Origin: Cirrosporium novae-zelandiae
Lineage: Eukaryota
Assembly: GCA_026023565.1 (NCBI GenBank)
Contig: JAPETS010000012.1
Coordinates: forward strand, 620,001 to 684,000
Direction of reading: 5' to 3'
Length of the DNA stretch: 64,000 bases
Each line of letters starts with the position of its first letter. Position 1 is the stretch's first letter. The position numbers and the translations under genes were made by a program. Below the pieces are notes generated by a model, which saw only the letters and a list, made by a program, of their open reading frames with translations, had not been told where the DNA came from and did no database searches. Shown here in pieces: positions 4,098 to 40,945 of this stretch.

Positions 4098-4848
4098 TGT
4101 GAGTGAGTGAGTGGGTGGGTAGGTAGGTGAGAGCAGTTATAATGTAGATAGTATGGTTATTTACCTCACTCGGGGAGAAGGATGATATAATGAGTCTTGC
4201 CGGTGTTGGAATGATTTAGAAGGCCTTTTGGAGAGGGAAATAGAGAAGACCTTAATGTCTCTATGCTGCACTGCTGAATATATGTATCTCCTCTAGCGCA
4301 CGCTCTGGTTGAATTTCCACACTATACACAAAAGGGATCGATAGAGAGTAACAACCTTGTACTCTCTCACTTATAACTTACCTGCTAAACACTCAACATA
4401 TGACCCATCTCTCAACCGCATTTTCCTAACAATCAGCTTACTAGATACAGTGAGCGTGTGAATATACTGCATTAAAGGAAAACCTAAACACCTAGAATTC
4501 AAATCGCAAAGAAGTAGTAGTAGTCTGTGATATGGGGGGGAAGACCAACAACATCCTCCCCCCCCCTCCCCCTACCACCAAAATTACCCGAAACGGAAGA
4601 CTAAACAGAGGTAATTAATTGTCGTCTGGGAAACGACTAAGGTCCATCGACAAATTCCAGTCAAACTCCATACCATTGCATAAGCATGCTCCTGAACTCC
4701 TTGAGCGGGACCCAAGATTTGTTTCTTTACACCAGACATAGTAGGATCTCAAATTGATATGGTCGTTTACACGGGTTCCTGATGATCTCGCTCTTTTGTG
4801 AATGTATTTTTAGATAGATTTCAATCGACAAAATATCGGTGATCAGGC

Positions 4849-7800
4849 CTATATCTTCCCTCGTAACTTAAGGCCCAAGAGTCGCATCCTTCCTTGCCAT
4901 AGTTCATACCTATGACCATGTAACAAAGGTGGGTTCTTCAAACGAGAATCGATATCAGTAACCTCCCTACCGACTTTCTGAATGAAGAGCATCCAAATTT
5001 GTTTCCCTGCGCGAGTAACACAGCCTCCGTGATCTAAAAAGAAGATGATAACCTCGTAGGCGTCGAGTTCGGATAAGCCAGCCATGCGTTCGAATAAACC
5101 AGCGGGGGGATCGGGTAAGGTAGCCCCGCCACCGGCACGTATTATTGATCTCAGTATACTATCAAGTGGAGTCCTCCCCATGTCATCCAACGCGTTGATA
5201 TCAGCGCCAAACTTGATAAGCGTTTCAATCAGCCCCTTATTGGGTACATGTAATGCTGTGCAATGATATATGGGTGTAGGCCTGCGCAGTAATAGCGGAA
5301 CGGTAATTTTCGTATTTGGGTTCTGACCATGCTCTAGCAGTGAACGCGCCAAGTAGACTTGATTCGGATTTATAAAATCACCCCTAGGAAAAAGCGACGC
5401 TCTACCTAGTTGATAAAAAATCGTTTGAAATGGGCACTGTCCTTTCCAGAGTTTGTCCTTAGAAGCTCCATGATTTATGAGCAGAGAGACCATGCTGGCA
5501 TAATTCCACATTTCATATGAGCGTTTAGTTAACTCTGAACCGCTTCTCAGGGGTTGAATATTTGAAGAAATCGCGAGACAATGGAGGGCCTGCTGGTGGG
5601 GGTCTATTTCTGCATAAGAATTTGATTGCAACTTTTCTCTCATGTATCTTTTGAGATTCGCCATCACAGCAAATCCGACGATTGAATTTATGAGTAGTTC
5701 CTTGGTATTTATATACTCATTTAAACTTAGGTCTAAACCACAACCATCTTCTGGAAATGAATCAAAGAAGATGCGCTGACTTGAACCAGTTGTCGATTCA
5801 GCCAAAAAAGCATATTGCATACATCTCAAGAATCCCTGGGGTTTTTCGTCATAAGTTAACTTGGTGAGAGCATATTTGCACATAAATGAATAGCCATTGC
5901 TCACTGTTAGAAAGCAGCTGTGTTTAAGAATACGTTGCCCGAACCCTAGTTTGCTTACGAAGTCTTTGGCACTCTGGTGCATGAATTGAACGATCGGATT
6001 TTTCGGTCGATGTAATATCTCTATTAGCCCCCCACATGGATCCAATAAGCTTTGTAGATGGTCATTATTTCCTGCATATATGAATGCATTCGAAGAGAAT
6101 ACGGCCTGACAATCGTCAAATGTATCACAATCAGCACATTCTGTAGCCTTAATGAACTCGTAGATATCTAGTTCTTCGCTAGAGCGCAGTACGATTTCAA
6201 GCATACTGTATGCTGTGGCTCGATGCCCCTCAGGTATTCTGTCCACGATTCGCTCATAGAGCTGCTCAAGGTCTCCGGGGAGTGATTTCAGAGTCTCCAG
6301 GAGTTGTTGTGGCGAAGCATTTTTCGCTGAAGCTTTAGTAAGCTCCTGAATAACCAGCTTTACCCATAAAAAAACACCTTGCGCCTTCTCGATGATTTCG
6401 AGAACCAGGAGGTTCTTCTGATGATCTCTTTGAGCCTCGGATACCGCCATGTAGGACTGGCTCAAAGATGATTTTTCCATCATTTTGCCCCCAACATAAT
6501 TCCAGATATCTTGACGGGTAAACTCGTGAATTTTAAAACCTGGGCAAGTTTCAAAATTCCTCATGAAAATATCCCATGGGCGGCTAGAAAAACATATGCG
6601 GAGACGTGTAGAAGCGCTCGCAGCAAGTTTAGTTGCACGTTGAACGAAAGCTACAATTATCTCTTTCGGACCATCAAACTCGTCTAAAGCATCCAAAAAT
6701 AGATGTATATTCACAGGCCGCTCGTCTTGCTGAAGGACACGGTCGAAACAGGCTTCCAGATCATCCAATGTCCAGTATGACCTTAAACGGTCCTCTTGCT
6801 GCAAATAGATTGGTAACACAAACTTGCGAAGCATTGGTGCACCAGAAAGAACCTGATAGAGTATGCTGCGTAGTAAACCTTCGAATGATTTCTGCAAATG
6901 TGGCCCACGATCATGGAAGAAGAATTCAGCACACAAATACAACGGGTAACCAGTGCACTGAACCCTGGCACTTTGACAGTTTCGGCCTATGTCGTGTTGG
7001 TATACTCTTGAGCAAACACGGTTTGGGGTCAATTAGCCTTGAGTAAAAGGATACTTACAAACAGGTGTTCCTCCATCACAACCCTTCCCACCCAGTCTAC
7101 AATCAAGGCATCCTATTTCCAATCTCTTATTCTCAGACCAGTCGTGCAATAATCGCGAGGTTTGCTGATTTTTGACAATTGACTTCATCAAAGTCGATTT
7201 ACCAGAGCCTGGTTTGCCACTAATCCAGAAAATTCCTCTACCATTTCTCAACCACTCCGCGAGCCCAGCTTTGGGATCATTAAAGATCCATTGTTGAGTT
7301 GAGTGATATGCATCGTCAATATCTTCGAATCGAGATCTCAGCTCAGCAAGAGAGAGACTTTTCATCATTTTGTTCTCTAGCGATCTTTATTAGCCACATT
7401 AACTTAATATTTGTCAGTGTACTTTACCAAGCTCGGCCTACTTCTCCTTCCGTTCAGCTGGTTGCTCCGAAGGAGCAGCATTTAGTCTTTTGAGGGAAAG
7501 ATTATTATCATGACCTAAGTCATATTCCTAATTGATTTTTAGTCGTCAGCTTCGTCAAACTTTAGCCCCGTCTGGCCCTTGAAAAATGCGTACCCCTTCA
7601 GCAATATTACACAAACTACATAGATAACTCATGATGGCTTTATAATTGGCATCGTCCTCTGCAAATTTAACCATGTCTGAATGATTCTCGTTTATAGGAA
7701 AGTGGTCCTGTTGATTTGACTGTTGTTGTATTGCTGACTCGCGGTTTACAAGAACTTCCAAACGTCCGGTTCTTGACCATGTTCCCGAAGGTGATAGCTA

Positions 7801-8810
7801 GTAAGTCAGTGATCTGAGATATGCGGGGGGGGGGTTGAAGGGTTCCTACCTGTGTTATATGTGAAAGTTTTGTCTCATACACGGAAATAACTCGTATGTC
7901 TTGTAAAAGTGTGATACCATTAAACTGGTTATCTAGTTCAGACAGATAACCTGAATCTCGACAAAGTGGCTCAACCAATACTGTATTAGGCTGCCCTTCC
8001 ACCATCGACATCAAGTGAGACATTTCCATGCCCTTGTTTGGGACTCCAAAAAATATTATGCCTTGGATTTCATGCAGAATTGCTCTCTCCAGGTCAGTGC
8101 CATTTGCCAATAAGACAAGAGCTTGTTTCAAAATGATCCCACCAAGACTGTGTGCCAGGAGGACTACTGGCTTCGCCGAGTCCAGTGAACGACCACTAGA
8201 CTTAAGTTTGACGATGAATGATATCGCTAAGTCATTAATGGTTTGAAATGACTGGCTCATCACAAGTTGGGTATCATAGCCGTATATAATATTTCGGGTT
8301 TGTGGTAAATCGCGAGGGAGTTGATCTCTGAGCCACATAAACGTTGAGTCTTTACTGCGATGTTTCCATGAGCCAAATGGATGGCTTGCTAGGCCAGAAA
8401 TGGCAATGCAGCTATTGAAAAATCATGGATTAGCTTCTAAACAAATATAAATGGAAGTTTGTATTTACATACTCAAATGTATGAAGGTGCTTCCCCACAT
8501 CATTTAGTGCTGTAAAGCCCAGGAAATGTAGATCAATGATAACGTTATGCTGAAGGCCCACATCCTGAGTAGGCAGAACCCATTCTTGCCTGTCCGGGGG
8601 CAACGCTTGCGGCCGCCTCATGAACTCTGCTGTTGCTGTCTTGGTCGGAGGTCTTTCATAAGGGTTAAGACTGGATGCCAAACATAGGGTTTTGATATTT
8701 TCCAACGGTCCAAGGCCAAGGCTAACAAGTAACTTTATGACTTCGAGTTTATCCATATAGTGTGGAAGTTTGCGAACCCGATACGTAAGCCCCTCGCAGT
8801 TCCTGTCCAT
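4849..8810 (-). CDS. Fungal NLR: SesB-like alpha/beta-hydrolase + NACHT (with inserted Zn2Cys6 cluster) + helical domain + degenerate ankyrin repeats; possible premature TAG at 7438-7440
   Basis: Hydrolase motifs ISGLASHPFGSW, MWLRDQLP, AHSLGG, FFGVPN and NHSDMVKF. NACHT motifs WISGKPGSGKST, FFFHDRG, LFLDALDE, CFSSRP and AQGVFLWVKLV. Ankyrin-like LIKFGADINALDDMGRTPL. Inferred introns about 8413-8472, about 7798-7849, 7528-7593, 7377-7427 and 6987-7058. Confidence 0.88.
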
Positions 8811-9533: not shown

Positions 9534-10367
9534 CTAATAATAACCATTATTATTGTCATGGCTACGACTCACATCCCATAGATATTGTTGCCATGCAAGC
9601 TCCTCTGGATCTAGCGAGGGGCTTCGTTCCCGGTCCCGTTCCCATTCCCGTTCCCGTTCCCGCTCCCATTCCCGCTCCCATTCCCGCTCCCGCTGCTCCT
9701 GCTCCCGCTGCTCCTGCTCCTGACGAGTAAGATCCTCATCGCACTCCTCACAGCAATTATCGAATTCCTGACACACCTCGGCCCCGAACTTAAAAGAGGC
9801 GCAGAACTCACAAAACACGGCAGGATAGTCATCGGGAAAGGGTAAAAGAAAGCCGACACGAATCTCGGGGCATCCAGTACTAGGATTCTTACCCGCTCTA
9901 GGGTATTTAGTCATGCATATGATGCATACCCGTCCGTAGGCGTTGTCGCATCCCTTTTTCTTGCTCCGCTCTCGTGTTACGAAGCAGTCTTGGGGCTGTC
10001 TAGAAAGACAAATGTAGCAGGTGAGTTCTCCTTTTTCCTTCTCTGCTGAAGTCTCGGGACATTCTTCCTCCCAACGGAGGTATTCTGCAATCTGCTGACG
10101 GTCGAGATGTTGTGTTCGAGGGGCAATGAGGCTATGGAATTGGCGATTGACTTGTTTGAGGCAAAGAAGAGCGGTCGTCGGGAGATAGGATATGATTCGG
10201 TTGATGTCTTCTGATTTCGCATTGAGCAGATAACTCACGGGGTGTTCAGAGGCGATTTTAAGGATAGATGTTCCTGGTGCTGAAGTTCTCTCGAGTGAAG
10301 AACCAGGGGGGCGATGAGATGCTGGTGAGCTTGCCGACTTTTCAGATGAATGGACTTGAGATGACAT
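9534..10367 (-). CDS. F-box-like protein with Cys-rich region and charged C-terminal repeats
   Basis: 277-aa ORF. F-box-like segment IISYLPTTALLCLKQVNRQFHSLI; CYIC, CIIC, CEFC and CEEC motifs; REQE/REWE repeats. Confidence 0.6.
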   Translation of the reverse strand: MSSQVHSSEKSASSPASHRPPGSSLERTSAPGTSILKIASEHPVSYLLNAKSEDINRIISYLPTTALLCLKQVNRQFHSLIAPRTQHLDRQQIAEYLRWEEECPETSAEKEKGELTCYICLSRQPQDCFVTRERSKKKGCDNAYGRVCIICMTKYPRAGKNPSTGCPEIRVGFLLPFPDDYPAVFCEFCASFKFGAEVCQEFDNCCEECDEDLTRQEQEQREQEQREREWEREWEREREREWERDRERSPSLDPEELAWQQYLWDVSRSHDNNNGYY

Positions 10368-11031
10368 CTTATTTCAGAGGCGACAGAAGAATATTCAAGA
10401 GACCCAGTATATGGATAGATAATTGGACTGAGTACTGTTGAGGTAATGATAACCCAGGTGAGGTAAGTTTGTTCGAGGAAAGACTAAGAGGGGAAGTGGA
10501 AAATATTTCAAAAGACAAGAGAAAGCTCCGACGCGATAAATGAAAGGATCTGATGAGTGAATGCAAGTTCTTCTCGGTGATAACATATTCATTACAAAAC
10601 CTCCAACGACGATGTTAATCTCCGTACAATACAGAAAACCAGTATCCTCACAGGCAAGTCCCAGACTCTTTCGGATTCACACATCATGTATATAGACCCT
10701 ACTGCATTTTCGTGAACGTTTCGTGAACGTCCTATATGCCAGCAGATTCCACTCCAGTATCCAACATGTGACTAAGGCGCCCAACTCCTTTGAAAGGTCA
10801 GTCCCTACTAGCTATTACTTATGTAAAAATTTCTCAATTCCACGCATTAAACATGCTCAGATGCAATGACACTTTACTAGGGAGAAAGTAGCAGAAAGAA
10901 AGGCCGAGCCGAAATTGATCGCTCCCTATGGACAAGTCACGGATGGGCTTATTAAAGCATTCTCACATTGATACTTGAGTAATTCATGCAACAGCCAGAT
11001 TTCTATATTTGATATCTCCCAAGCAAGCCTG

Positions 11032-12100
11032 TCAAGCTTGGGAGGCAATACTAACAGTTGACTTCTTCCTGTTTCTGAAGGCCCACGAAAGATGCCAACC
11101 AAGAACAATGGATGGGGTTACGAGCAAAAGACCCAAATCAAGCCTGAAAACACCAAGATCATGACCGAGAAAATCCAAAACGGACGCCCCATTGCCTGGA
11201 GCCTGACATCTTCTAGTTTCGCAAACCCAAGTCCATCTAACGGTATGCTAGGGCCACTTGCATGTACGACAGAACAATTGAAATAACAGAAAAAACAAAC
11301 ACCCAGGCACCTTTAACCCATTGGATCCATGAATCTGGAGACCAATATGCTGTGGCTCTGCTCTGGGGCCAAAAAATAGGGCTGGCCAAGATCAAGTGCC
11401 AACGACAGAGCTGCCCATAGCTGTACCATTTTGCTACCTGAGCATCTTCAATGCGACGGATTTTAGAGATGAATGCAGACCACTTGATCCACTCAATATT
11501 GTCAGGAACAAGGTGATATTTACGAGCAAGAATCAGGTCTGAATGATGCTGTATAAGGAAAGCATAGGATCGCAGGAATCCAAGTGCAATTCCACGATCA
11601 AAGTATTCGGCACCGGGGCCATCTATTCCGTTCTCAGCATTACTTGTCGCTGACATTGAGGGTTTGATTGAAGAGAGGTATTGGGCCCAAAAATAATAGT
11701 TGAACAAGCAGATGGGTATCGGCTTCAGGTATATTTTGTTATGACACCAGACAAGATGAAACTTGGGATCCTCAGTAAGAACGACCTGTCTTCCTATCAT
11801 GATCTGTCTATGAAGAGGGTCAATGTTGCTGCCTGAATTCCTATAAAATCGCTCAAGTCTTGGGCAAAGCTCATCCAAGATGGGGTTGTCAAGCTCTCTG
11901 ATGAGAAATTTATGGACTTCGTTCGCTTTCAGATCTATATCAGGTTCGCCAGGCACATGAGGAATTGACCCCTTCGGGTTCTCGGGCGAGTTCAGGCAGG
12001 GTAGTAATAGACATTCGGCTGAAGGATGACAATGAAGGCGTTGATTGTTTAATGCGTTTGCCCCAGAAAAAGGGACGTCAAAATCACGAGAAGCAGCCAT
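11032..12100 (-). pseudogene. DUF6601-family membrane protein gene with two apparent 1-bp deletions near the 3' end
   Basis: Family motifs IDPLHRQ, LTEDPKFHLVW, IYLKPIPICL, ALGFLRSYAFLIQHHSD, YSYGQL and MQVAL. A hydrophobic tail continues in shifted frames after about 11246 and about 11125 to TGA at 11032-11034. Confidence 0.65.
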
Positions 12101-12984
12101 CCAGATACAATAACCTTTTAAAACGTTAAACTAGAAGTGTTTTTCTTTCCAAGGGAATTTTGGTAAATTTACAAAAGACGGTAGATCTTATGGGTAAGGT
12201 TATTAACGACATTCATGGCAATTCAAGTACAAGAGGCAAGTACGTACAGTACAGGGATACACTCGAGTTCCAGCCTCAAACTTGACCGCCCGCCCAGGCT
12301 GACTTCTCCATACGAAAGAACTTGTTTGAACTTTCTCTCACGATCTTCGGCAAGATATTCAAAATATTTCAATTCTAGCTCCCGCCACTGTCATAACATT
12401 ATACATAAAACAAAGCCATGGATTGGACCATGATCATTTTATATTTTTTTATTTTTTTGGTCTCACTGGCGTTCCTTGATGATCAGGCTACGAGAGGGAT
12501 CTCATCGCGCCAACGAGCCGATCATCGCCCGAAATCCGAATTTGGTCTTGTCCCTGTGGATGGATTTGACTCACAGGTTACTTCTAATGGAGTAGGTAGG
12601 GCTGCAATAATGTCTATTCACCCACCCATCTCTCTCTCTCTCTTGGAAAGGGATTCGGAGGGGAGGCAATGATTAAATCCCCATTTAAAAGCAGCTAAGG
12701 TAGGTACTATAGGTACATAGCTTTTAGTCCTTGGTTCATTTTATATGACCGACCCTTCTACCCCTCCACCCTCTAACTAAAGACTAATATAATGCATAGA
12801 TAGATAATAAACCCCTTAGTTGTATTATTATTATTAAAATAGTCACGAATAACTCTTTTTCCGTTATCGATCGTATCCCTTTTTTTCTTTTTTTCCTGGT
12901 TGTGTTACCTCCCCTCGACCCCCCCCCACCCAAAGCCGTAGAGCGTAAAGAAAATCCAGACAACAAGATTAACTAAACTTAGTC

Positions 12985-13902
12985 TCAAGTGTAAAAACTA
13001 GAAGACTGAACCTCCTTCTGCCACACCTCCCACGCAATCTCCAATATCATCGAATTATCATCCATCAACATACTATCCGCAGCTTCCTGAGCCGACAAGT
13101 ACTTTATACCGTTATCCATAAAATTCTCCCCGCTTCCGTAAGCGGCAGCATGGATAGTCAGCGCCGTCGACTGAACTTCGGCGTCTCGTTGGGTGTAGAT
13201 TGCCCGATAGACAGCTTCTTCAAGGCTGGTTCCGAGGGTGGTGAAGCCGTGGCCGCGTTGCAGGACAACCGTGTAGTCTGGTGATGGATCTGTTCCTGGA
13301 TCTGTTCCATTTTTTGAATCAAAATAAGAAGCCAGAATTCTTCCCAGGCGGATGCTGTTGATGAGCATATTGTGTAAGTTACCTGGCAGGTAATAGTCTG
13401 CGATGTCGAAAACGGGGACTTTTGTGCCTGTGCAAAAGTAAAAAAACTCCCTTTAGCTTGTTGAAATACTGTTGGGTGTGCTCCTGGGAGTACTGCTGGG
13501 AGTAACTGCTGGGAGAGATATCTACTCACCAAGAAACCCCGTCATGTGATATGTTGGGCGGAGTGGAACATGGCTATCGGCATAAGGTATCACGGCTTCC
13601 GAGTGGCTATGCACTGCATTGTTGATGTCCGGATACCGTTTAAAAATCTCACCGTGGATATAATGCTCTGAAAACCATGAGCTTGGAGGGGCGTTCGGAT
13701 CAACGAGCGTCGAGTTTTCTACGTAGTATTCCGTGGGCGAGGCACCAACCCTCTTGTATTGGACTAGATAGGTGTTTGGATTCTCGGGATTCCGTACAGA
13801 GACATGGCCAAAGCCATCGTATATCACGTTGTGAAAGCTGAGGATGTTCGCAGCGGTAATCAATGCAAGGTAAACTTGCGATAGAGTTGAATTTGAAGTC
13901 AT
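12985..13902 (-). CDS. Class II aldolase/adducin-domain protein; intron 13428-13529
   Basis: DGFGHVSVRNP, SEHYIHGEIF, HSHS, VLQRGHGF and EEAVYRAIYT. Intron GTGAGT...CACAG joins the two ORFs. Confidence 0.9.
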
Positions 13903-15666
13903 CACGTTTCAGGAGTTATGAGGGTTTAGAAATAATGTTTAGATCAAGGGCATTGAGATTGTTCTTATAAGATTCATAGCCAGGTTACTCAGTATTAGGA
14001 AGCACATCAAGTAGATATACATGTAAGATAGCACAAAGATGGAGAACAAAAATTTAGCTGCAGGATCTAGAGAATATGGCTTTTCAGCTGTTAGCACAAC
14101 ATATTTCACGACCAAGATAGACTTGGCATTATTCGATATATTCTTAATTCATAAATAAAAGAAACATGTCCGCCATAACCCAAAGGCGGCATGCAGACAA
14201 TAAAATGAATCATCATCATAAATAAAAGAAAATCCTTTCCCATTACTCTATGATCTTCCAAGCATGATCTTGACCACTGATTCATTGTTAGGTCAGTAGT
14301 GATATATCACCGACATGATTCTTAATCAGCACAGCCTCAGGCAGAGGATGGTCCAAGTCGGTACCTGAGGATAACAGTAAAAGTGCAGAAATCACACAGC
14401 TCGCTTTACCTACACTTGAAAGCAGTCACGGGATCAGATGCTGGATACCAAGTAACTAAAAAAATATCTGAAAAGCAATGCTATACTTCAGGCGTTTATG
14501 TTCAGAAAGGCTCCTAGGAAATATAATACAACTTTACCCTTGAATTGCGCGTTCCATCGTGTTACATATATGGCTGAGACGATCAATTCGTCGGTGATTG
14601 CGTACATGGCTAGCAGCCATTCTGCCCTTGAATGATATTAATCAAACAAGGTTTGCGGGATGCAGCTGGGCTTTCCTCGGGGATGGGTCCACTGGCAAGC
14701 ATCCAAGGATTGCGTAAATTGAGATGTGCTGGCATCCAGAATAGCGTAAGGGCCATACCTCGTCACAAAAAGCAACTTTGCGGATCACTGGGGAATCCAC
14801 CACAATCAAAATATACATGTCTTCGAAATAGATTACCACAATTAATCAAATTAAACACTGTAATCGGTTGGACCTTGGAAATAGACGCTTAGAAACTCTG
14901 GGCCGATGATCTTCAGTCTTGTTGACCATTCGGATATTGATGGCCTAACTAATATATGAACTAGTTTAGATGAAGTCGTATTCGTGATGGGTGGAATTGA
15001 GATGCAAGAGTTTTGACCAAGCTATCGTTGTCATTTATTGATTCAGGCATGAATGATGAAGAGGGGTGGGCATGCAGGTTGACCAGGGGTTCTACCGAGC
15101 AATTGTAGTGGTACACGCCCACCCATGATGATACGGCACAACAACTTGAGGAATCTGCAGTGGGCGGGTTTCTGTTGTCGAATTGTCCATCTATTATATT
15201 CCAGGCTTCGGGGGTTGACCCGCAGTGTCTGAAGTGATTGTTGTTGTGGTGGAGTACCCGCAGCCACCGATGAAATGCAGAAAGTTAACTCAGACACCAT
15301 TCACCAGAAGCAAACATGACCCACCTGGAAGTTGACACCTTGAAAACAAGGCTATCGATTCAAAATTCATAATTCATCTTTACTTTTTCGGAAACTAGTG
15401 TTGGCACAAAATTATGAAGCAAAAGAAAAGTTCTTTATTTTATCTATCGCACTGACTAATTCGAATTTCGCACCAAGGTCTAGTTGGAAATTTTAATCAC
15501 AGCGCCATCAATCATAAGCTGACTGAAAGGGAGTAAATGAAAAGATATTCTATCATTGACGACCGTTGACCCAGCTTATGCATGTAACACTCCCTGTAAA
15601 AACGAAACATTCCTAAATACCGACACAACACCCCCCAGAATCCGTAACCAGCCCTATGCGAGGCGT

Positions 15667-18084
15667 TTAGTAAGGCCAGCTCCAGTTGCGGAGCTCAACC
15701 GGGTCGATACCGTGCTCATGAGCCCAGTGACGGGCCTTGATTTGAGAGTTGAGGAGCTTCTCGCGAGCACCAGCGGCCTTGATGTGTTGAGTGGGCATCC
15801 GGTCAATGGCATCAATGGCAAGCGAGTATCGATCGGTCTGGTTCTGGATAGCAAGTTCCAGAGGGGTATTGATGTTACCCTTCTCCTTGTATCCACGAAC
15901 GTGGAGGTTCTCCTGTCCAGGTCTCTTGTAGGTAAGACGATGGATCATCCATGGGTATGAGTGGAAGTTGAAGATGATAGGCTTGTTGTGGGTGAAGAGG
16001 GCAGTGTATTCCCGATCGGTCATACCGTGAGGATGGTCAACGTGGGAGATGAGCTTGAAGAGATCGACCACGTTGATGAATCTCACCTTGATTTCAGGAA
16101 GATATTCGCGGAGGAGAGCAGTGGCAGCAAGAGCTTCCATGGTTGGAACATCACCGCAAGAAGCCATGACAACATCAGGCTCCTCGCCGTGGTCGTTGGA
16201 GGCCCAGTCCCAGATACCAACACCCTTGGTGGAGTGCTCGACGGCAGCGTCCATGTCGAGGAATTGGAGATGGTCTTGCTTGTCGGCAACAATGACGTTG
16301 ACGTAGTTGTTGCTTCGGAAGCAATGGTCCATGCAGGAAAGCAGGCAGTTCCCGTCAGGTGGGAGGTAGATACGGACAACTTCGGGGCTCTTGTTGGCAA
16401 CAACATCCAAGAAACCGGGGTCTTGATGGGTGAAACCGTTGTGATCTTGTCTCCAGACAGTGGCTGTCAGGAGGATGTTGAGGGAGGCGATCTTGACACG
16501 CCATTCGACTTCGTTACATTTCTCGATCCACTTGCAATGTTGGTTGACCATAGAGTCAATAATGTGGATGAAGGGTTCGTAGGAGTTGAGCATTCCATGT
16601 CGGCCAGTAAGGAGGTATCCTTCTAACCAACCCTCAATGGTATGTTCAGAGAGGATTTCCATCACACGACCAGCGGGGGCAAGGTTGCCGCCATCTGAAT
16701 CTTCTTCAAAGTTCTCAGCCATCCACACCTTCTTTCCTGCCTTGTAGACTTCACCCATCTTGTTAGATTCAGTCTCGTCAGGGCCGAACAGACGGAAGTT
16801 GGTCTGGTTGGCGGCGACGATTTCACGGAGGAAGATAGCCATGTTGCTCATGCTGGGGGCGTTGGTGACACCGGGGTGGGGGACAGCGATCTTGAAGTTT
16901 CGGAAGTCGGGCATCCGTAGAGGCTTCTTGAGGGCACCACCGTTGGCAACGGGGTTGGCACTCATACGGCGGTTGCCAGTGGGAGGGAGAGCCCTCAATT
17001 CAGGAATGAGCTGTCCATCCTCGGTGAAGACCTTGTCTGGGCCATAGCTTCGCATCCATGCGTCCAGGAGCTTGAGATGTGCGGGGTTTGTGGCAACATC
17101 GGCGCAGGGGATTTGATGTGCACGCCAGTAACCTTCTTGGTTGTGGTTATCGATCTTGCGGGGACCGGTCCAACCCTTGGGGGATCGGAGAATGATCATG
17201 GGCCAGTGAGGGCGGAAGGCCTTGCCAGATTCACGGGCTTGCTTCTGGTATTGTTTGATTTCCTTGACACATCGCTCGACGGTGGCAGCCATGGCTTGAT
17301 GCATGGTTTCTGGGTCGCTACCTTCGACGAAGTATGGTTGCCATCCGTAGCCGTAGAAAAGGGCTTCGATTTCCTTGTGGCTGATACGAGCCAACAGGGT
17401 GGGGTTGTTGATCTTGTAACCGTTCAGATGGAGGACGGGGAGGACAGCACCATCGACGATGGGGTTGAGGAATTTGGTGCTGTGCCATGAGGTGGCGAGA
17501 GGACCGGTTTCGGCCTCACCGTCACCGACCATGGTGACGGCAATGAGATTTGGGTTGTCGAAGACGGAGCCGAAGGCGTGGGAGATGGAGTAACCAAGTT
17601 CACCACCTTCGTGGATGGAACCTGGGGTTTCGGGGGTGGCATGAGAACCGATACCGCCGGGGAAGGAGAATTGCTTGAAGAATTTCCTCATGCCCTCAAC
17701 ATCCTCGGAGATATCTGGGTAGACCTCAGAGTAGGTACCCTCGAGGTACGCCTGAGAAAGGACGGCTGGAGCACCGTGTCCGGGTCCAGAGACGAAGTAG
17801 GCATCGAGGTCGTACTTCTTGATCATCCGGTTGAAATGAATGTAGGTGAAGATCTGACCAGCGTCGGATCCCCAATGACCCAAAAGACGAGACTTGAGGT
17901 CTTCAACCTTGAGGGGTTCCTTGAGCAATGGGTTCTGCTTCAGGTAAAGCATACCCATGCAAAGGTACAGACTGGCCCGGAAGTACTGGTCAGTCAACCG
18001 AAGCTCCTCATCGGAGAGAGGGTGCTCTGGCTTGACGGTAGAGCGCGCTGGCCCGAATGGGGAGATGCTTTCGACCTCTGCCAT
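15667..18084 (-). CDS. xpkA: Xylulose-5-phosphate/fructose-6-phosphate phosphoketolase
   Basis: 805-aa intronless ORF with LLGHWG, GPGHG, HEGGELGYS, the TPP-binding GDGEAETGP motif, LHLNGYKI, ILSEH and WRQDHNGFTHQDPG. Confidence 0.97.
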   Translation of the reverse strand: MAEVESISPFGPARSTVKPEHPLSDEELRLTDQYFRASLYLCMGMLYLKQNPLLKEPLKVEDLKSRLLGHWGSDAGQIFTYIHFNRMIKKYDLDAYFVSGPGHGAPAVLSQAYLEGTYSEVYPDISEDVEGMRKFFKQFSFPGGIGSHATPETPGSIHEGGELGYSISHAFGSVFDNPNLIAVTMVGDGEAETGPLATSWHSTKFLNPIVDGAVLPVLHLNGYKINNPTLLARISHKEIEALFYGYGWQPYFVEGSDPETMHQAMAATVERCVKEIKQYQKQARESGKAFRPHWPMIILRSPKGWTGPRKIDNHNQEGYWRAHQIPCADVATNPAHLKLLDAWMRSYGPDKVFTEDGQLIPELRALPPTGNRRMSANPVANGGALKKPLRMPDFRNFKIAVPHPGVTNAPSMSNMAIFLREIVAANQTNFRLFGPDETESNKMGEVYKAGKKVWMAENFEEDSDGGNLAPAGRVMEILSEHTIEGWLEGYLLTGRHGMLNSYEPFIHIIDSMVNQHCKWIEKCNEVEWRVKIASLNILLTATVWRQDHNGFTHQDPGFLDVVANKSPEVVRIYLPPDGNCLLSCMDHCFRSNNYVNVIVADKQDHLQFLDMDAAVEHSTKGVGIWDWASNDHGEEPDVVMASCGDVPTMEALAATALLREYLPEIKVRFINVVDLFKLISHVDHPHGMTDREYTALFTHNKPIIFNFHSYPWMIHRLTYKRPGQENLHVRGYKEKGNINTPLELAIQNQTDRYSLAIDAIDRMPTQHIKAAGAREKLLNSQIKARHWAHEHGIDPVELRNWSWPY

Positions 18085-18094
18085 GATTGTTGAT

Positions 18095-18205
18095 CTATAT
18101 TTTCAGTATTGTCAGTACGATCGATATGAGAAGTGAGGGGTAACTAGAAGGGAGGGGGTTTCGAGGAGAGGGGGGGTTGGAGGGGTACCAAGAGGGATGG
18201 CTTAC
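18095..18205 (-). other. 5'-UTR intron of the phosphoketolase gene
   Basis: On the minus strand GTAAGC...TACTGAC...ATATAG, ending 10 nt before the ATG. Confidence 0.7.
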
Positions 18206-21200
18206 AAGACAGCTGTTCTGCTGTTCTGTGTTGATCTTTGTCTGTTGATCGGATTGTGAGTTGATGGAGAGCTGATTATGCTGGGCAGAAGCGTCTCTTT
18301 TTCAACTCGATGGAAATGAGAAATTTTCCTCACCTGGACCCATTGTTACCTAGGTATTCCAACCTATGGAAGGTGAGGCCGCTCAGTTCTGCTACAGAAG
18401 GTGGGATGATAATGACAGAGCCAGATCTTCGATCATCAGATAGAGATGTCTGATGTGTCTGTTCCGATACTCAACCGACAGATCCTATCATCCTACAACG
18501 GAAAAGGCCTTCCTCCGGCAACCAAACTGTGTCTTGTCCACCGCCAATACTCGCCAATGTTCACCAATAAGAGAATTCCTAGGCATGAGCAAGGCTCTGC
18601 TTTGACCCCTCTATAGTATAACATGGATGCGAATGATAGGCGACAGGCATGGGTGGGGGATAGCTTCCAAACAGTAATTTTCACCAATTGCTTCGAGGAC
18701 TATCATCACGCCGAGTCAGTCGAAGGAGGCCAGTGGACAGAACGAGACAGGATGGATGGGCAGGAGGGGCAGGAGGGCAAGACGAAGCAGGGCGATGCAA
18801 GACGGATGCAAAGACGAGACAGAACGATGGCAAGTTAATTTTGGGTAAGTTCAGGGTAAGCAGTACCACAGTAGCGAACCTAGTCGGACCTACGAACTGT
18901 ACTTGTCACTACTGTGGCAGCACTTGTGGCAGACTGGCAGTTCACTTTGGCCCAAAGGCACCACCCCATCGGATCCTACCCCCCCCAAGATAATTACAGG
19001 CAGGAATTGCATTAAGCCCAGTCAGCCGCTGCCCGCCGTCCAGCATACCGCTTATTACCGATAATTACATCCTGGATGCCCCATTTCCCATAGATTCGGA
19101 TTTTCCGACCGGTAATTACCACGTAATCAAACTTTACTTTTTTGCTTTACTAAGCGGCAAACTCTAATCCTCAAAGATTCCGAGTGTCCGGCTAAGGAAA
19201 TCTCAGATTGACAGAATGACAGATGGGTGTCATGTATCGAATAGGTATTCTTTTGAGATAACGTATACTTTTAGGTTGTGGAACATGAATCGACAAAGAA
19301 TTTCGAGATGAAAGAGAAAAGAAAAAAAAACAGGAAAAAAACAAGAAAAACAAAGACGATAAAAAAATATCATCATGTTAGATGACACCTTACACCTTAC
19401 CTCGATTGGCAGTAAAAATAAAATTTTCTCATTCAGAGTAGTACTTCTAGTATCTGGCGTGCCTGGTTATGGCTGTCCGGGACTATTCCACCGTTCATCC
19501 AGCGGAGATTTATGGCCAGTTGGCAGTTTGAGAAGACAGTTGGGCCGTGGCTGGAGAGAAACTATGCTCTGACCTTTGGTCACCTTAGGTATGTTCTGGA
19601 TGTATGGATGGAGGTATGGATGTGTATTTGGGTATTTGGGTATTTGGCTGCATTAAACTATGCCACTATGCCCAGACTGTGTGTGAAAGAGTGCCTGGTT
19701 AATAATAAAGCTTTTACTGTACGTGTACCTTGTCAGCAAGCAATCCATGACAGTAATTTGGGCATATCCTGTCAGCGGAAACATCCCCGGTCCTCTCCGG
19801 CCAATAAGGTTGACTTAGCTGACTTACCTCAGAGTCCCATGCGCTCTGTGCTCGAATTAGCTAAGCACGTCCCGTAAACTCAAGGTTGCACACTTTCCTC
19901 GACTTGAAATCACCCGGAAAATAACAAATCTCCACCACCCCTCCACCTCCCTCCGCCATGAGTCCATCACACCTACGAGTCTACAAGGAGAGACGACTAC
20001 CAAGGCTTGACCGATTTCATCCATCCATATGATCCTGGTAGGATTAAGACCTGTGGGCCTCCCTGTGGATCATTGAGATATTCTGGAATGAGGTCGCTGC
20101 AACTTGATGGAGCCACAACATTTTATCAACTTGACCATATTATGGGTCATGGACTCATGGGCTCATCAAGACTCGGTGACCTAGTTAATCAACCAGCACT
20201 GACCATGCTGCTTCTCATACATTCGTAATAGTGATTAAGCGATACGAAACACACTAAAGAAGTGAATAACGATGAATCCGATATGCATGTAATATTAATA
20301 TAATATTGATATCGTAAAGCGCATCAAAAAAAGGACTCTATATTTGGGATGTGATTTGGTGTAACCAAACGGTGGTTGATTCAAGTATCATCGTCAGCGG
20401 CAATTTGTCGAAAAAGCAACGAAAGCATTGTAACACTTGCACCCGGTGGCTCAGTTTGATATTGAGATCTGTCCCCTGTACTCGGGCGGTTCCTGGATAC
20501 TTGACGGAATAAGCGCTACTGGTAATGCGGAGAAGGCTGACGGGAGGCTCCCGCAAGACAGTAGGCTTTTATTTTGTAGATTTCCTTATGAGATGGTGTG
20601 GACTGGCCTTGTAGATCTTTGATGTTTCGGTCGAGAGATACTCCACTGCTTGTCGTACTTCGATAAGCTTTCGAGAACAAAGTATTTTTTCGTTGAGCTC
20701 ACGTGATTATGGTCTGATCAACTCGTCAAATTCCAAATTCGTGAAACCATGGAACCCTCAACTCAGCCCTGACTTGAGCCTCTTCGGGTCTGGCCACCCT
20801 TGAAAACCTTTTTTTTTATCTTTTTGCAGTCCTGGCCTACGCCGTTCACCGTCCCCCTTGAACCTTTCGTTGTCGCCTTCACCTTGGTTGCCCAGTATCA
20901 GAATCACAGCTATTGACCTGACCCTCTGTTCCTCACTATCTTCTCATCTTAGAGTATTGTTCTTGTCTGTTTGATTTGCTACAACTCATTATGTGATCTG
21001 TCCGTGGTTGGTTCTCTTCAATGGAAATTTTGTCCTAGGTCATTTTGGCATTGTGTAATCTCTACGAGTACGAGGGGATAGTGAAGCTCTGTAGAGATTA
21101 TTCTTTAACACCCTAGTTTACAGCTTCAGAATGCTAATCTTGGAAATCAGAGAACGAATCAATCATCACTCCCCTTTATTCGAGAGGAAACCTTCGCTAT

Positions 21201-22009
21201 ATCCTACTAGATAGGTTCCCAGAGATACATTTTTGAGGCGTGGAGAGCTCAAGACCACAGGACGAATTCGATCGACTTGAGACCATTTTTCATTATTCCT
21301 TTACTGCCTTGAACAACATGCAATATTTGACCGTATCTTCGTACGAGAAAATAAAGTCACACCCTCTTTTCCTATCCGCATAATGACCCCGAAAGATTGA
21401 TTATGAATGGACTCTTTCACCTGTTTGTTTAACTGGTATAGCTACTGAGGTTCTATGAATTTGGCTACGATTACTACTACTTCATACTTTCTACTGAAAT
21501 AAACCCCTTGGCTCTGTTGTCATGCAAATTCTTTTGGCCCTCTAGCCTCAAGGCTGAGCTATTTTATCATTTTGGTTCAGGTTTTCTACCCTTACAATAA
21601 AGTATTGAAGTATTGAAGGGTCTGCATATACTTGATTACTATTGTTGACGTTTGCTTTCATAGTATAAAGTGTATCTGATTTATTGTGGAAACATTAACC
21701 TGTGACGACCAGGTAAGGAGCTTCTTATCATGCCCTTGGTCACTGTTTACAGTTACTACTAATCTTTCAAACCTAGCTTTTGAAAAAAATCAAAACATTA
21801 GATGAACAATTGTTGATACCCTGCATGTATTTCCTCATGTTGATCCAATTGGAGCGATTTCATACCCAATCAAATCTAACCAGAAAACACAGGGAACAAT
21901 GCAACTTATGTTGCACCGACAAGGCCCTAGATGCAACACTTCTGCGGGTCCTGGCCGATAGCTAGCTCCCATTCTCCTATTCATTCTATTGGGTTACCCA
22001 TAATACATC

Positions 22010-23945
22010 AGATCAGATCCGAAGCCACACTTGTGGCTTCCTGAAGTCCGGATCCTGCCTGTACCTTATTAATGTTAGCAGAATCTGTGGTCTGATCTTC
22101 CCGACCGCGATCCCTCTTAACCTCATTGAGGCACGCTTTCCCCACGTTACACGATCATGACTTGCGCTCGGTCCCAAAGGACTTATGCACCTGTGCGCAG
22201 GAACCACCTTTGTTGATCTTTGGATGACATGCATGATGGCGAGCAGATGCCGCTTAACCCTAATTCAACCTCGCAGTTTGAGATTTTTGTGGATAGTTTG
22301 AAGTTTCTACCTAGGTGAGACCCATGTTTCAATACCAGAGAATCCTTTCGGAGAATATTACCTCCCCGAAAATTAGGTCCTGGTATTTTCCCGCTTTCAC
22401 CGTGGGGGCAGGAAAATATATTTCCGAGCCCTTGCTCGGGAAATGGATAATGCTAAGATAGCTTATTATATTAATGGACGTTTGCAGTTCTGCCTCTTCG
22501 TATTGTCTGTCAGCATGTTTTCGTTGGTTCGGTCGTGTTTCCCTCCACAGCCGATCCAGCCCAGACTCATATCCCAAAATCATTAGCCCAGACCACCCTT
22601 CATGTCCTTGTGCTCTCTAACGAGTCGAGTTTGAATTGTGATGACGGCTACTTCCCAAACTTTAATTTCCTTCGGCTTTACCCCGTAACAAATTTCTCTC
22701 GCTGCCCTCTTGACCTGGATGCCGAGAGGGTGTGGATGGTGCCTGGCTCTCGGTACCATGGTCATTTCGGCCTCAACCGAGTTTGGAGGGTTACTCCTTT
22801 GTAGTTCACTCTTGCCGGAAACTCCCCGGTAGTAAATTCAATCCTTCCCAACAGCATCACCTTCCTAGAGCTACCAGGACCAGACACGCCTATCCCATCT
22901 CATCCTATTTTTATTACTATCACTCCTATTTTTTTTAAAAAAAATACCAAAACCCCTTCCAACAAAGTAATCATCCATACCTAGATACCTACCTAGTCAT
23001 CGTTTAAAATTCAATGAAACATAAACCAACCGGTATCAAGCATTAAAAAAAATCCCCACATCTTTATGCATCTATACAGTAATTAATAAACCTCTCTCTA
23101 ACCAAGAACCAAAAAAATAAAAAAATAAAAACTCAGTATCCTACCAGACCAACCTTGCCCTTCCCCTTTCCCTCACCACCACCACCACCAAAACCCCTTC
23201 CTATATACCTACCCATCTTACTCCCTAAGAAACCTCTCTCTCTCTCTTTCTCTCTCTCTCCTAAACAGTCATAAAAATCCATAACAAATCATAAAAAAAA
23301 AAAAAAATTTCTTCTTCCTCCCCTACTATATAATCCTTTATAAGAAATAGAAATTAAGAAATATAAAAATGAGGATTAAGAAAGGGAAGGAGTAGGTTAA
23401 GAGAATAGATGATTAAAGAAAAGAGAAAAAATAAAAAAGGATTTCCGAATTAAATCGGGATCCTCTTGTTTTTTTTTTTGCTAATTATAATTACCTATAA
23501 AAATCCATATCTATAACTATAACGATAACTAACTTTATTATTTATTATCATTTATATTCATACTTACTTACCCCCTTCCCTTCATATCCCTTCCCTTTCT
23601 TCCCTCACCCCCCCCTCCTTTCCCCCATAGGTATATTACTCATCAACCCCTCATTCCCCATTCCTCATTCCCCATTCCACCACCACAATACCATTAAATA
23701 TTACATTATTTCCATCTTTATTCTAGCTTATACCTAACCCTCCCCAGCCTAAGCCCAGCCTAACTAAGAAGTTTATCGATAAAAAAGGGGTAAAAAAATA
23801 AATAAATGTTTTCGTTCGTGTCAGGGGACCTAGGGTCATGGAATGATTGACTAGGTCTGACTAGGGTGTGGAGGCCTTTACCTTATAGAGGTGAGTTTAG
23901 GGGTATATCTATGTCCTAATGGTCTAACTTAATAGGGGAACTGGA
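22010..23945 (+). ncRNA. TER1: Candidate telomerase RNA (template/pseudoknot core; 5' and 3' ends not defined)
   Basis: Template TAACCCTAA at 22255-22263. Hairpin TGGC/GCCG at 22237-22252 just 5' of it. Core-enclosing helix 22225-22236 with 23812-23823. Pseudoknot stems 22632-22651 with 22801-22840 and 22791-22800 with 23784-23793. Many G-U-containing hairpins on the + strand and no credible ORF. Confidence 0.7.
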
Positions 23946-24093
23946 ACAGTTCGTTCGTTCGTTCGTTCGTTTTTTTTTTTTTTTTTTTTTGTGAATTACT
24001 GTAAACTATATAAAAGCTAGAAGAAGAAAAAGAAGGTAACTTGGAAGAGGGGTAGGTAAGGGTAAAGGGGTAAGGAAGAAATAAAATGTACAG

Positions 24094-24095
<2 letters not shown>

Positions 24096-24127
<32 letters not shown>
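24096..24127. repeat. (GT)n microsatellite
   Basis: Perfect dinucleotide run. Confidence 0.95.
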
Positions 24128-24132
<5 letters not shown>

Positions 24133-25481
24133 GTCTGCTCTCTACTGTAATAGTAGTATAGTACAAGTACAGTAAAATATTATATTTGGTTATTCGGTTC
24201 TTTTGTATATCATTTTTTTCGATATAATTATATACTTTCTTTTTTTTTTTTTGGTTGGTCTGGTAGGCGTAGGGTAAGTGCATAGGGATACCTTGTATGT
24301 GTATATATTTCTTTCGATATTGGGGGGGAGGGAGTTGATTATAACTATAAGTATAAAACTTGGAATAAGAAGGTATTGGCATACCTATCTCCTCCTTCTC
24401 CTTCTCCTCCTCCCCCTTTCCATCCCACCCATCCACCCATCCACCCATCCCTCACATCCCCCTCACATACTTAACCTCCCCCCCCCCCCCTCCACATCCC
24501 TTTCTCCTTTCCCTCCGGCCCCCCAAAAAAAATTATCATCCTTTTTTATTTATTTACAGTTTTTCATATTTATAATCCTATTATTCTTATTATCCCCCTT
24601 CACTCCCTTTCCCCTCTTCCCCTCATCCCCTCTCCCTTCTCTATCTTATATTCTTATTTATTATTTCTCATATATTTATAGAGTTAACCCTCATTTTTTT
24701 AAATTTTTTTTTTAATTGTGCCATTTGCAGTTGGATTTTATATTTATTTATAGACTAGAAGTAAATATAAATAAAGAGAGAAAAAAAAATTTAACTTTGT
24801 TGGTTTTCTTGGTTTTAGCGTTCTAGTGATAGAAAGAGGGAGGGTTTGGTAGGATGTAATATGTATTTTTTTGTCTAGGGCTTGATCGTATAATTGAATA
24901 ATAATAATAATATAAGCCAGGAATGGGAATAAGGAAGGTATGGCTATTACGAATCTTCTCCTCTCTCTTTTCCTTTTCCTTTTATTCAAATATTCAGATC
25001 CAGGTCCAAGTCCAAGTCCAAGTCCATTCATTCCCCCTACCTAATTAAACCCCACCCCCCCTTCCAAAAAAGAAAAAGAAAAAACAAAATCACCATCCTT
25101 TTTTATTATTATTATTGTGAGATTGAGATAAAGCGATAAAGTGATGGAGCATCTCCATTCCAATGCCGAATGCCCTCCCGAACTCCATCCTTCCCATATC
25201 CCGCCCACCGACTCCCCTTCCGAACGCCTAAAACGCCCAATGCCGAACACACCTTTTCCAGGAAATATTAATCTGATCCAACTAATAGGGATAGGGTTAT
25301 GTGAAACTTGTTCTCTCCGAAGAAGATAGAAGAAAAAAGAAAACGCATATTCCAACTTTTTAGTATCTTTGATCCTCAATACCAATACATCCCCTCCTAA
25401 AAAACCAAAGCCTCTCTGCACAATCACAATCACAGCCACAATCTCAGTCTCAACTCTCCTGATTTCCCATCATCATTATAA

Positions 25482-26570
25482 TCAAGCCCAAGCGCTCTCA
25501 TTCTCACGCGTAGTCGTCCAAACATTCATACGAGTCAGCGTACTAGTCATCGTAATGGTAATGGTAGCCCTCTCTGTCTGAGGCATCGGCGTAGGCATAG
25601 TTGGAAAGTCCTCATGGTCCTCATAGTCGCACCGCCGGCCAACGGGGGCGGGAGTTGGGTTGTAGTTGCAGTTGGGCGTAGAAGGGGAGGTCAAGTAAAC
25701 CAATTTGAATGTATAGCTCGAGGAGGCATCTGTAACGGTGGGGTATGGGACTTTTCCAATTATGGCAGGGGGGTAGCCTGGGACGTGGCCGGCTGGTAGG
25801 AGGGGAGGTTGTTGTGGTTGTTCTTGTTCTTGGCGGGGTTGTTGTTGTTGTTGCTGTTTTTCTTGGCGGTAAACTCGTTTGCCGAATGGTTGTGGTGGCA
25901 ATGGGGATGGTGCGTGTAGGAGGATTTCGTCGCGGTCGACTACGCGGGTGGTGTGATTTGCGTCTACGAGGGGATGACCGTAGATTCCTTGGAAGAATAG
26001 TGGTCGCGGCATCGTGGATGCTGCTCGCGGGAGGATTATGCTGGTGGTGTGGTTTGGAAACGGGGCTTGGGTATTGGTAGTAGTGTGTCCGTTTGCGTTC
26101 ACGAGAGAGGGGAGTGGGACCCGTTGGTTTGATTGGAGCAGTGGTGGTCGTGGTATTGGAGATGCTTCTCGTGGGAGGATTATACTGGTGATATGTGGTC
26201 GTGGCATCGGGGATGCTTCTCGTGGGAGATTTTTGTGAATGTCGATCACGTGGGTGGTGTGGTGTCGGAGCGGGGTTTCAGTATTAATAGTAGAGTGACC
26301 GTTTGCATTTACGAGGGGGTGGGTGTGGACTCGTTGGCCTGGTAGGAAAAATGGTGGTCGTGGCACCGGGGATGCTACTCGTGGGAGGATTCCACGGGCC
26401 AAGGCTGGCATCGAATAGTTAGTGGGGGGGAAGAGAGATGCGAAGGTGGCGGATGGAACATCGGCGGGTAGAGTGGGTGTAGGCCAGATCCTACGAGGGA
26501 GTGCAACAGCGGAGGGGATGGTGAGAGCTAGGAGGGTGAGCCCCTGCAGGGCGGTGGTGGGAACACGCAT
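25482..26570 (-). CDS. Secreted Pro/His/Thr-rich repeat protein, putative Kex2-processed peptide precursor
   Basis: Signal peptide MRVPTTALQGLTLLALTIPSAVA. Four LPR-(V/E/A)A-S(P/T)-xP-RP repeats and repeated LV(N/D)AN(G)H(S/T)T blocks. Confidence 0.65.
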   Translation of the reverse strand: MRVPTTALQGLTLLALTIPSAVALPRRIWPTPTLPADVPSATFASLFPPTNYSMPALARGILPRVASPVPRPPFFLPGQRVHTHPLVNANGHSTINTETPLRHHTTHVIDIHKNLPREASPMPRPHITSIILPREASPIPRPPLLQSNQRVPLPSLVNANGHTTTNTQAPFPNHTTSIILPRAASTMPRPLFFQGIYGHPLVDANHTTRVVDRDEILLHAPSPLPPQPFGKRVYRQEKQQQQQQPRQEQEQPQQPPLLPAGHVPGYPPAIIGKVPYPTVTDASSSYTFKLVYLTSPSTPNCNYNPTPAPVGRRCDYEDHEDFPTMPTPMPQTERATITITMTSTLTRMNVWTTTRENESAWA

Positions 26571-32012: not shown

Positions 32013-32039
32013 CCCTAACCCTACTATCGACTCACGTGA
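32013..32039 (+). promoter_or_regulatory. Telobox-like CCCTAACCCTA plus E-box TCACGTGA in the zuotin promoter
   Basis: Both motifs lie 174-200 bp upstream of the zuotin ATG. Confidence 0.45.

Positions 32040-40914: not shown

Positions 40915-40945
<31 letters not shown>

Follow-up and report, generated by a model that had tools for sequence, protein, structure and literature searches.

Results

An NLR gene with a predicted zinc cluster in its NACHT domain

The 64,000-nucleotide stretch analysed here (hereafter the window; positions 620,001 to 684,000 of contig JAPETS010000012.1, assembly GCA_026023565.1, Cirrosporium novae-zelandiae) carries on its minus strand, at 8810..4849, a six-exon gene for a NOD-like receptor (NLR) of 1217 amino acids, and the NACHT domain of this receptor contains a short segment with the six cysteines of a GAL4-type Zn2Cys6 binuclear cluster. 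The exons (8810-8473, 8411-7850, 7797-7594, 7527-7442, 7384-7059 and 6986-4852, with the stop codon TAG at 4851-4849) reproduce exactly the public protein P0001. This gene model, named 'MAG: hypothetical protein M1834_001211 [Cirrosporium novae-zelandiae]' in its source, was returned at 100% identity by protein search and carries the domain annotation PF00172 plus PF24883 in the public record. The reading frame of 1217 codons is open across all six exons.

Pfam matches, motifs and relatives together point to an α/β-hydrolase (sesB-like)/NACHT/ankyrin architecture for the product. The putative N-terminal hydrolase domain bears the GxSxG nucleophile-elbow motif AHSLGG (8138..8155, minus strand). 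The open reading frame (ORF) covering it, 7667-8422, has only sub-threshold Pfam matches (PGAP1, E 0.0064; Abhydrolase_6, E 0.015; DUF676, E 0.053), and a relative, P0107, carries PF05057, PF12697 and PF07819 together with PF24883. In the C-terminal sensor region the best-scoring ankyrin repeat spans aa 1080-1114 (5161..5265, minus strand); the Ank_4 and Ank matches, at E 3e-4 to 2e-3, are slightly under the Pfam cut-off, and P0002, the closest relative among the matches listed, passes the Ank_4 threshold. Between these regions, NPHP3_N (PF24883, a NACHT-type family of fungal NLRs) matches P0001 with 83 bits in two stretches. The landmarks of the NACHT domain on the minus strand are the Walker A motif or P-loop, GKPGSGKST (aa 453-461, 7192..7218), strand β2, CAEFFFHDRG (aa 524-533, 6904..6933), which was placed by alignment and lies at residues 127-134 of the structural model described below, and the Walker B motif, LFLDALDEFDG (aa 601-611, 6670..6702), in which D604, D607 and E608 are invariant alignment columns.

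The inserted segment lies in the loop that joins the Walker A helix α1 to strand β2. It occupies 180 nt (7113..6934, minus strand), made up of 36 codons (G488-L523, 108 coding nt) and a 72-nt intron, and it follows directly on the native end of helix α1 and its loop, HDWSENKRLEI (aa 477-487, 7114..7146), a stretch that aligns with the loop of the relatives. The protein around it reads LLHDWSENKRLEI, then the 36 residues, then CAEFFFHDRG, and the segment is in frame on both sides. The NPHP3_N profile is divided at the same place, with positions 2-49 aligned before the segment and positions 53-164 after it. This split match and the alignment bear out the position between the Walker A helix and the FFFHDRG strand that had been read from the sequence in the initial annotation.

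Predicted splicing of the inserted segment

The coding sequence of the zinc cluster is interrupted within the codon of its fourth cysteine. The first part, which begins with Cys1 and ends on the first base of the codon for Cys4, lies at 7059..7110, and the second, from the rest of that codon through Cys6, at 6955..6986; they are separated by a phase-1 intron of 72 nt (7058..6987) with donor GTAAGT and acceptor TAG. On the minus strand the 5' side reads AAG AGA TTG GAA ATA GGA TGC CTT GAT TGT ... CCT GTT T/GTAAGT and the 3' junction ACATAG/GC CGA AAC TGT, the joined codon T/GC being that of Cys4. An in-frame TAA within the intron (7035..7033) separates the stop-to-stop ORFs 7033..7386 and 4849..7032. 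The removal of this TAA by an intron from GTAAGT at 7058 to AG at 6987 had been predicted at the outset; it agrees with the sequence and with the P0001 model, which uses the same 72-nt intron. The spliced peptide of the region is GCLDCRLGGKGCDGGTPVCRNCQSARVQCTGY, with the spacing C-x2-C-x6-C-x6-C-x2-C-x6-C (Cys 489, 492, 499, 506, 509 and 516 of P0001), and the core of this pattern, originally placed at 6955..7110, maps to 7110..6955 exactly.

With twenty GT..AG pairs, the Walker A motif and FFFHDRG both stay in frame. The six-cysteine spacing arises with only one of them, 7058->6987, and none of the 20 takes out the insert entirely so as to restore the ancestral loop; the nearest alternative, 7138->6965 (donor GTCTGA), would remove the native loop residues SENKRLEI instead. 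A reading of the whole insert as a single intron was rejected, as the sequence from Cys6 to the FFF strand contains no AG. The donor GTAAGT at 7058 is the best among the five introns of the gene, its TAG acceptor recurs in three of the other four, and a branch-like site, TACCAAC, lies close to the acceptor. If the intron were retained, translation is predicted to end at the TAA, shortly past Cys4 and before strand β2.

The zinc-cluster module

On the spliced protein the Zn_clus profile (PF00172) scores 24.9 bits at residues 488-520 (gathering cut-off 21; E 2.2e-5), covering profile positions 2-33 of 39. A profile check with Zn_clus and NACHT had been proposed in the initial annotation, and it gave both this match and the 83 bits of NPHP3_N. 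The cysteine spacing also falls within that of the PF00172 family, C-x2-C-x6-C-x5-12-C-x2-C-x6-8-C, once the 7058->6987 splice is applied. The match goes beyond coincidence: the full six-cysteine pattern has no occurrence in the six unspliced frames of the window, and the four-cysteine half-pattern occurs once, at the insert.

A sequence search of solved structures aligned all six cysteines of the insert with those of PPR1 (1pyi). The matches to solved Zn2Cys6 domains were used for residue-by-residue comparison and not as proof of homology. With GAL4/PPR1/PUT3-type domains (PF00172; 1pyi, 1ajy, 1zme, 6o19) the insert shares the C-x2-C-x6-C-x6-C-x2-C-x6-C spacing, an Arg following Cys2, an Asp following Cys3 and a Pro two residues before Cys4; this Pro and all six cysteines are thus kept. 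The principal difference lies between Cys2 and Cys3, where the insert has CRLGGKGC and PPR1 has CRLKKIKC. The Lys pair, which GAL4 has too and through which the CGG bases are contacted in complexes of the GAL4 type, is Gly-Gly here, in line with the earlier remark that the usually basic loop has become RLGGKG. Of the six residues that separate Cys2 from Cys3 only two are basic, namely the Arg after Cys2 and one Lys, and the 36-residue insert as a whole has four K+R and two D+E. Because the chain re-enters strand β2 seven residues after Cys6, there is no linker and no dimerisation or coiled-coil element such as GAL4/PPR1/PUT3-type proteins have. In those proteins the module also lies near the N-terminus, whereas here it is embedded in another domain.

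The host NACHT domain

The domain that surrounds the insert retains its conserved residues. GKPGSGKST, LFLDALDEFDG and a downstream Arg motif, CFSSRPW, are all present, and in a 60-sequence alignment this protein keeps 16 of the 16 invariant columns, including G59, P61, D210, D213, E214 and R247 in the numbering of the model. An AlphaFold model of residues 395-830 has a mean pLDDT of 89.6 and a pTM of 0.85, and its pLDDT is about 96 both before and after the insert. The chain exits helix 76-88 and re-enters at strand 127-134. Foldseek matched the model to the STAND/AAA+ structures NRC3, CED-4 and ORC/Cdc6 with E values of 1e-5 to 1e-3, at TM scores of only 0.25-0.40. In the insert itself the model has only three-residue helical turns, at Cys1-x2-Cys2 and Cys4-x2-Cys5. 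A search of the ESM Atlas with the insert gave no usable match.

Comparison with relatives

None of the relatives examined carries the insert. A word-based search with the C-terminal 727 aa gave 331 matches, 120 of them listed, with 27-42% identity over these residues among the matches listed; PF00172 occurs in one of the 120, which is the gene itself. When the search was limited to residues 425-560 (941 matches, 120 listed), the gene itself was again the only one of the 120 with PF00172, and the score dropped from 314 bits for the self match to 103 bits for the next. HMMER with residues 416-611 against 1.84 billion representatives gave 10,323 matches, the best 150 of which were listed. With the insert at query 73-108, P0001 was the only one of these 150 to match in one stretch; the other 149 all matched in two or three stretches, split around the insert, and none of their best stretches ends past query 74 or starts before query 98.

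The NACHT region was aligned with 59 relatives (31-47% identity), whose consensus is GKPGSGKSTLMKFIxxDxRTxxxLxxxxxxxxxIxAxFFFHxRG. The columns of the insert hold 36 residues here, three in 55 of the relatives, four in two, 11 in P0241 and 64 in P0203, so the connection is short (at most four residues) in 57 of 59, as had been supposed. The extras in the other two, about 61 residues in P0203 and about eight in P0241, are unrelated to the insert. That of P0203 (1038 aa) is of low complexity, rich in Pro, Ser and Glu, and could be either an unspliced intron or a real disordered insert.

The called ORF of P0002 (698 aa, 42% identity) begins with MSASFFFHDRG, exactly where the insert ends in the present gene. 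As metagenome gene callers break ORFs at introns, the DNA of 80 relatives was compared as well. Walker A and FFF are 270 nt apart here, compared with 72-96 nt in all 50 loci, of the 80, that were measured by motif. With tblastn anchors 76 of the 80 loci were measurable, the four without one anchor being left out; the extra DNA between the anchors was -18 to +21 nt in 64 of the 76 and at least 49 nt in 12, and none of the 76 has coding DNA in the α1-β2 loop. Three of these 12 loci have plain introns, in the loop (L038), after β2 (L043) and in the P-loop (L066); that of L038 (L038:1770-1852) is short, contains stops and precedes the insertion point by a few residues (SWSG/.../DAKLVFARFFF). The possibility that relatives conceal the insert behind an intron was thus rejected at the DNA level for these 76 loci, the 12 long ones having either helical inserts or plain introns.

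The other nine loci (L018, L019, L028, L035, L037, L040, L052, L075 and L078) combine a canonical loop with an in-frame, Cys-poor, helical-looking extra elsewhere in NACHT. These extras measure 219-483 nt by the anchors and lie between strand β2/helix α2 and Walker B, at locus positions of about 1750-2400. Seven of the nine were read, and L019 and L037 were assigned from anchor coordinates identical to those of L018 and L035. With such extras in a subgroup of nine NPHP3_N-type relatives, the NACHT switch domain of this family thus accepts large insertions at a second site.

Origin of the segment and reliability of the DNA

The searches for a donor gave no candidate that could be retained. A second copy of the 195-nt region was found neither in the window nor, as a second contig at 80% identity or above, in the source run. 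Among 5.8 billion protein clusters, which include the NCBI proteins of this organism, P0001 itself was the only protein sharing enough five-residue words with the 44-aa insert sequence to count as a candidate. On these results the insert is not a recent copy. The intron carried by the insert suggests that genomic DNA, and not a processed transcript, was captured, unless the intron was gained later.

One gene at the far end of the window was considered as donor. It lies on the minus strand at 58974..57410 and encodes a Zn2Cys6/Fungal_trans_2 transcription factor (Fungal_trans_2 ORF 57410-58855). Its zinc cluster is encoded at 58944-58915 and 58855-58793, with a 59-nt GTAAGT...TAG intron just before Cys3, and owing to this split a one-frame scan misses it. 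The gene was rejected as donor, since the two clusters are identical at only 12 of 31 positions, six of them the cysteines, and the intron position differs.

The assembly is a metagenome-assembled genome. A single public run, of the three listed, contains the stretch and is probably the source run. Its Logan contig, 11 kb in length and the only one in that run at 80% likeness or above, is identical over the 701 bases of 6700-7400 and shows no joints or loose ends. The Logan assembly was made independently of the contig, yet it may derive from the same reads.

Discussion

Fungal NLRs are known by the thousand, with ligands known for very few of them. In plants, integrated domains are the main clue to NLR ligands. 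The gene described here adds to the fungal side a case in which, to our knowledge, a module normally confined to fungal transcription factors lies within the nucleotide-binding domain of an NLR. We consider it on balance probable that, in this lineage specifically, a surface loop of an otherwise intact, ordinary NLR has captured a Zn2Cys6 module. The architecture of an integrated domain is supported by the Zn_clus match, by the in-frame junctions on both sides and by the comparison with relatives. What became fixed in the α1-β2 loop would then be a piece of genomic DNA with a spliceosomal intron and no more than the Zn2Cys6 module of a fungal gene of the transcription-factor type. As Cirrosporium novae-zelandiae belongs to an isolated lineage of Pezizomycotina (PMC6712537), and the closest protein relative among the matches listed is only 42% identical, little can be concluded on the age of the insert from its absence elsewhere.

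P-loop folds of this class have a helix α1 that points away from the nucleotide site, and their strand β2 is an edge strand. From this topology, the loop should lie opposite the ATP site, beside the entry of strand β1 where the effector joins. The six cysteines would bind two zinc ions and form a compact knob, which would stand out on the side of the nucleotide-binding domain that faces away from the ATP site, close to the junction with the N-terminal effector. The remainder of the protein may act as in other fungal NLRs, with the ankyrin repeats sensing a ligand, NACHT oligomerising and the hydrolase serving as effector. Given Gly-Gly in place of Lys-Lys and a chain that is back in β2 seven residues after Cys6, the module has most likely lost the ability to read DNA, and specific DNA binding by it appears unlikely. 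If the module has any function, an added role in protein contact, as a sensor or bait or as an autoregulatory latch on the switch, is possible.

Several observations weigh against this reading of an intact captured module. The insert is a singleton from one metagenome-assembled genome of an isolated lineage, and there is consequently no evidence of conservation and selection is not measurable. The Zn_clus score exceeds its cut-off by 3.9 bits only, and the similarity to solved GAL4/PPR1/PUT3-type examples is weak, with E values of 0.4 or higher and therefore not significant alone. The AlphaFold model gives the insert (residues 94-129 of the model) a pLDDT of about 47-51, and the 44-aa sequence folded alone, in single-sequence mode, reaches 47, which is uninformative. 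The splice is a prediction, no RNA run that contains the gene being among the three public runs listed, and the public model P0001 may be purely ab initio. In addition, 50 nt separate the canonical CTAAT from the 3' splice site, as against 9-33 nt for such sites in the other four introns. About 30% of the transcription-factor gene models of A. nidulans are stated to need re-annotation, often at introns near the zinc-cluster coding regions (PMC8396895), which calls for caution over any unverified splice.

The most serious rival is that of a tolerated passenger, neutral or mildly harmful, captured by accident in a fast-turnover gene family and either borne by the loop or carried along in a decaying gene; the intron may then often be retained, giving a truncated protein. 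We regard this as rather unlikely, though well ahead of the explanations that follow. The singleton status of the insert is in its favour, as are the unrelated extras that P0203 and P0241 have in the same loop and the atypical distance between the canonical branch-like site and the 3' splice site, and the long inserts elsewhere in the NACHT domains of relatives suggest that insertions are tolerated. Such a passenger, on the other hand, is at odds with the open frame of 1217 codons in six exons and with the retention of every invariant NACHT residue, and the six cysteines, the Pro and the splice signals are all intact. An intact module with no detectable close donor is moreover not what one would expect of an insert that is old and unconstrained, nor of one acquired very recently.

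A stronger claim than capture is that this gene is the first fungal NLR with a transcription-factor zinc module in its nucleotide-binding switch, selected there as a bait or as a zinc or redox latch. We hold this to be distinctly doubtful. As a bait, the module would draw antagonist factors that attack Zn-cluster regulators; as a latch, it would be a knob at the ATPase base that unfolds when zinc is lost or the six cysteines are oxidised, and oligomerisation would thereby be released or blocked. Under either version, sensing would be placed inside the nucleotide-binding oligomerisation domain and not in the repeat domain.

A strict integrated decoy, in which the module mimics the DNA-binding domain of a Zn-cluster transcription factor and the binding of an antagonist effector trips the NLR, must be judged equally unlikely, being an explanation by analogy. 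WRKY, BED and HMA domains are the precedents from plant NLRs with integrated domains (RRS1-WRKY, RGA5-HMA and the BED-NLRs), and the present gene resembles these in that a module derived from a transcription factor is embedded in an NLR, that is, in that a non-canonical domain of such origin stands inside an otherwise complete receptor. The resemblance ends at several points. Plant integrated domains usually lie at the termini or between the NLR domains, and the WRKY domain of RRS1 retains its DNA-binding features, whereas the reduced basic surface of the insert would make it a less faithful mimic. Plant NLRs with integrated domains have identifiable guardee families; for this insert no guardee or donor paralogue was found in the window, in the contigs of the source run (at least 80%) or in the protein clusters by shared words, and the neighbouring Zn-cluster gene is identical at only 12 of 31 positions, six of these being Cys. 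The plant receptors often occur in head-to-head sensor/helper pairs, as noted in the survey text that cites the integrated-decoy concept (PMC12258605), whereas a scan of 22 large ORFs of the window gave no second NLR (no NACHT or NB-ARC match). The failure to find the insert in any relative examined is likewise unfavourable to a decoy.

Among fungi, the nearest comparison is the same survey of Sordariales NLRs (PMC12258605), in the text of which non-canonical domains are reported in 8% of the NLRs, in their N- or C-terminal regions. The zinc fingers described there are of the C2H2 or treble-clef types (ZZ, C1, FYVE, TRASH), one NLR has Fungal_trans together with CFEM, and putative integrated decoys are proposed, notably protein kinase domains, which lends the decoy explanation a fungal parallel (PMC12258605). 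The present gene is like these in having an extra binding-type domain within a complete NLR. It differs in that the module lies inside NACHT, within the ATPase domain, and not in the N- or C-terminal regions, and this difference in turn tells against a decoy of the kind proposed for Sordariales (PMC12258605). The terms Zn_clus, PF00172 and binuclear are absent from the 12 searched of the 17 supplementary files of that survey (PMC12258605), and neither zinc nor a transcription factor is mentioned in the main texts of PMC9815663 and PMC4986451. A full-text literature search found, by title or abstract, no described example of Zn2Cys6 in a NACHT domain or fungal NLR. The remark in the initial annotation that no example had been described thus stands as far as the searched text of these fungal-NLR surveys is concerned.

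The ordinary counterparts of the gene are the sesB-like/NACHT/ANK NLRs of fungi, whose tripartite architecture (Dyrka et al. 2014, PMC4986451) it probably shares. The likeness extends to an NPHP3_N-type NACHT with GKPGSGKST, FFFHxRG and LFLDALDE motifs. The difference lies in the loop, as Zn-cluster-like content occurs there in none of the relatives examined.

A receptor that binds or senses DNA, which had been suggested as an alternative at the start, is very unlikely. The cluster would bind CGG-type sites, and oligomerisation of the NLR would replace the multivalency that GAL4-type factors owe to their coiled coils. The GAL4-type spacing of the six cysteines and the Pfam match over the cut-off are what such a receptor would show, and of the basic residues the Arg that follows Cys2 and a single Lys before Cys3 are still there. 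The idea is weakened, however, by the Gly-Gly at the positions of the Lys-Lys of PPR1, by the presence of only two basic residues in six between Cys2 and Cys3, and by the return to β2 seven residues past Cys6, too early for a linker or dimerisation segment to fit in. Least credible of all is an artefact, whether mis-assembly, a chimeric contig or an annotation error that makes a never-translated domain, since the metagenomic origin of the assembly and the lack of an RNA run among the three listed, which would allow it, are outweighed by an insert in frame on both sides that no in-frame GT..AG pair removes entirely and by the identity of the Logan contig over 701 bases, even if the latter perhaps comes from the same reads.

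If a folded foreign module does lie inside NACHT, the switch domain itself can accept sensor modules, in addition to the protein ends at which integrated domains of fungal NLRs are placed in the survey text (PMC12258605). The preferred reading, a captured Zn2Cys6 module in an otherwise ordinary NLR, would also make the locus a clean natural case in which a domain was captured as DNA, along with its intron. Its importance is limited to one gene in one assembly of an uncultured genome.

Other features of the window

Homopolymer runs are typical trouble spots for short-read assemblies. Ten C occur in intron 2 of the NLR gene (7849..7798, minus strand), and long G/C runs lie at about 4560..4590, just past its stop codon. 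The neighbours at 9534..64000 are housekeeping genes, with no NLR cluster among them. They include a DUF6601 gene (11237-12130), a phosphoketolase (15667-18102), zuotin (32415-33611), Bud13 (41191-42000), a Brr2/SNRNP200-type helicase (48695-54802) and a short-chain dehydrogenase (56064-56825). Fragments of AAA ATPases are located at 1-947 and 39830-40600.

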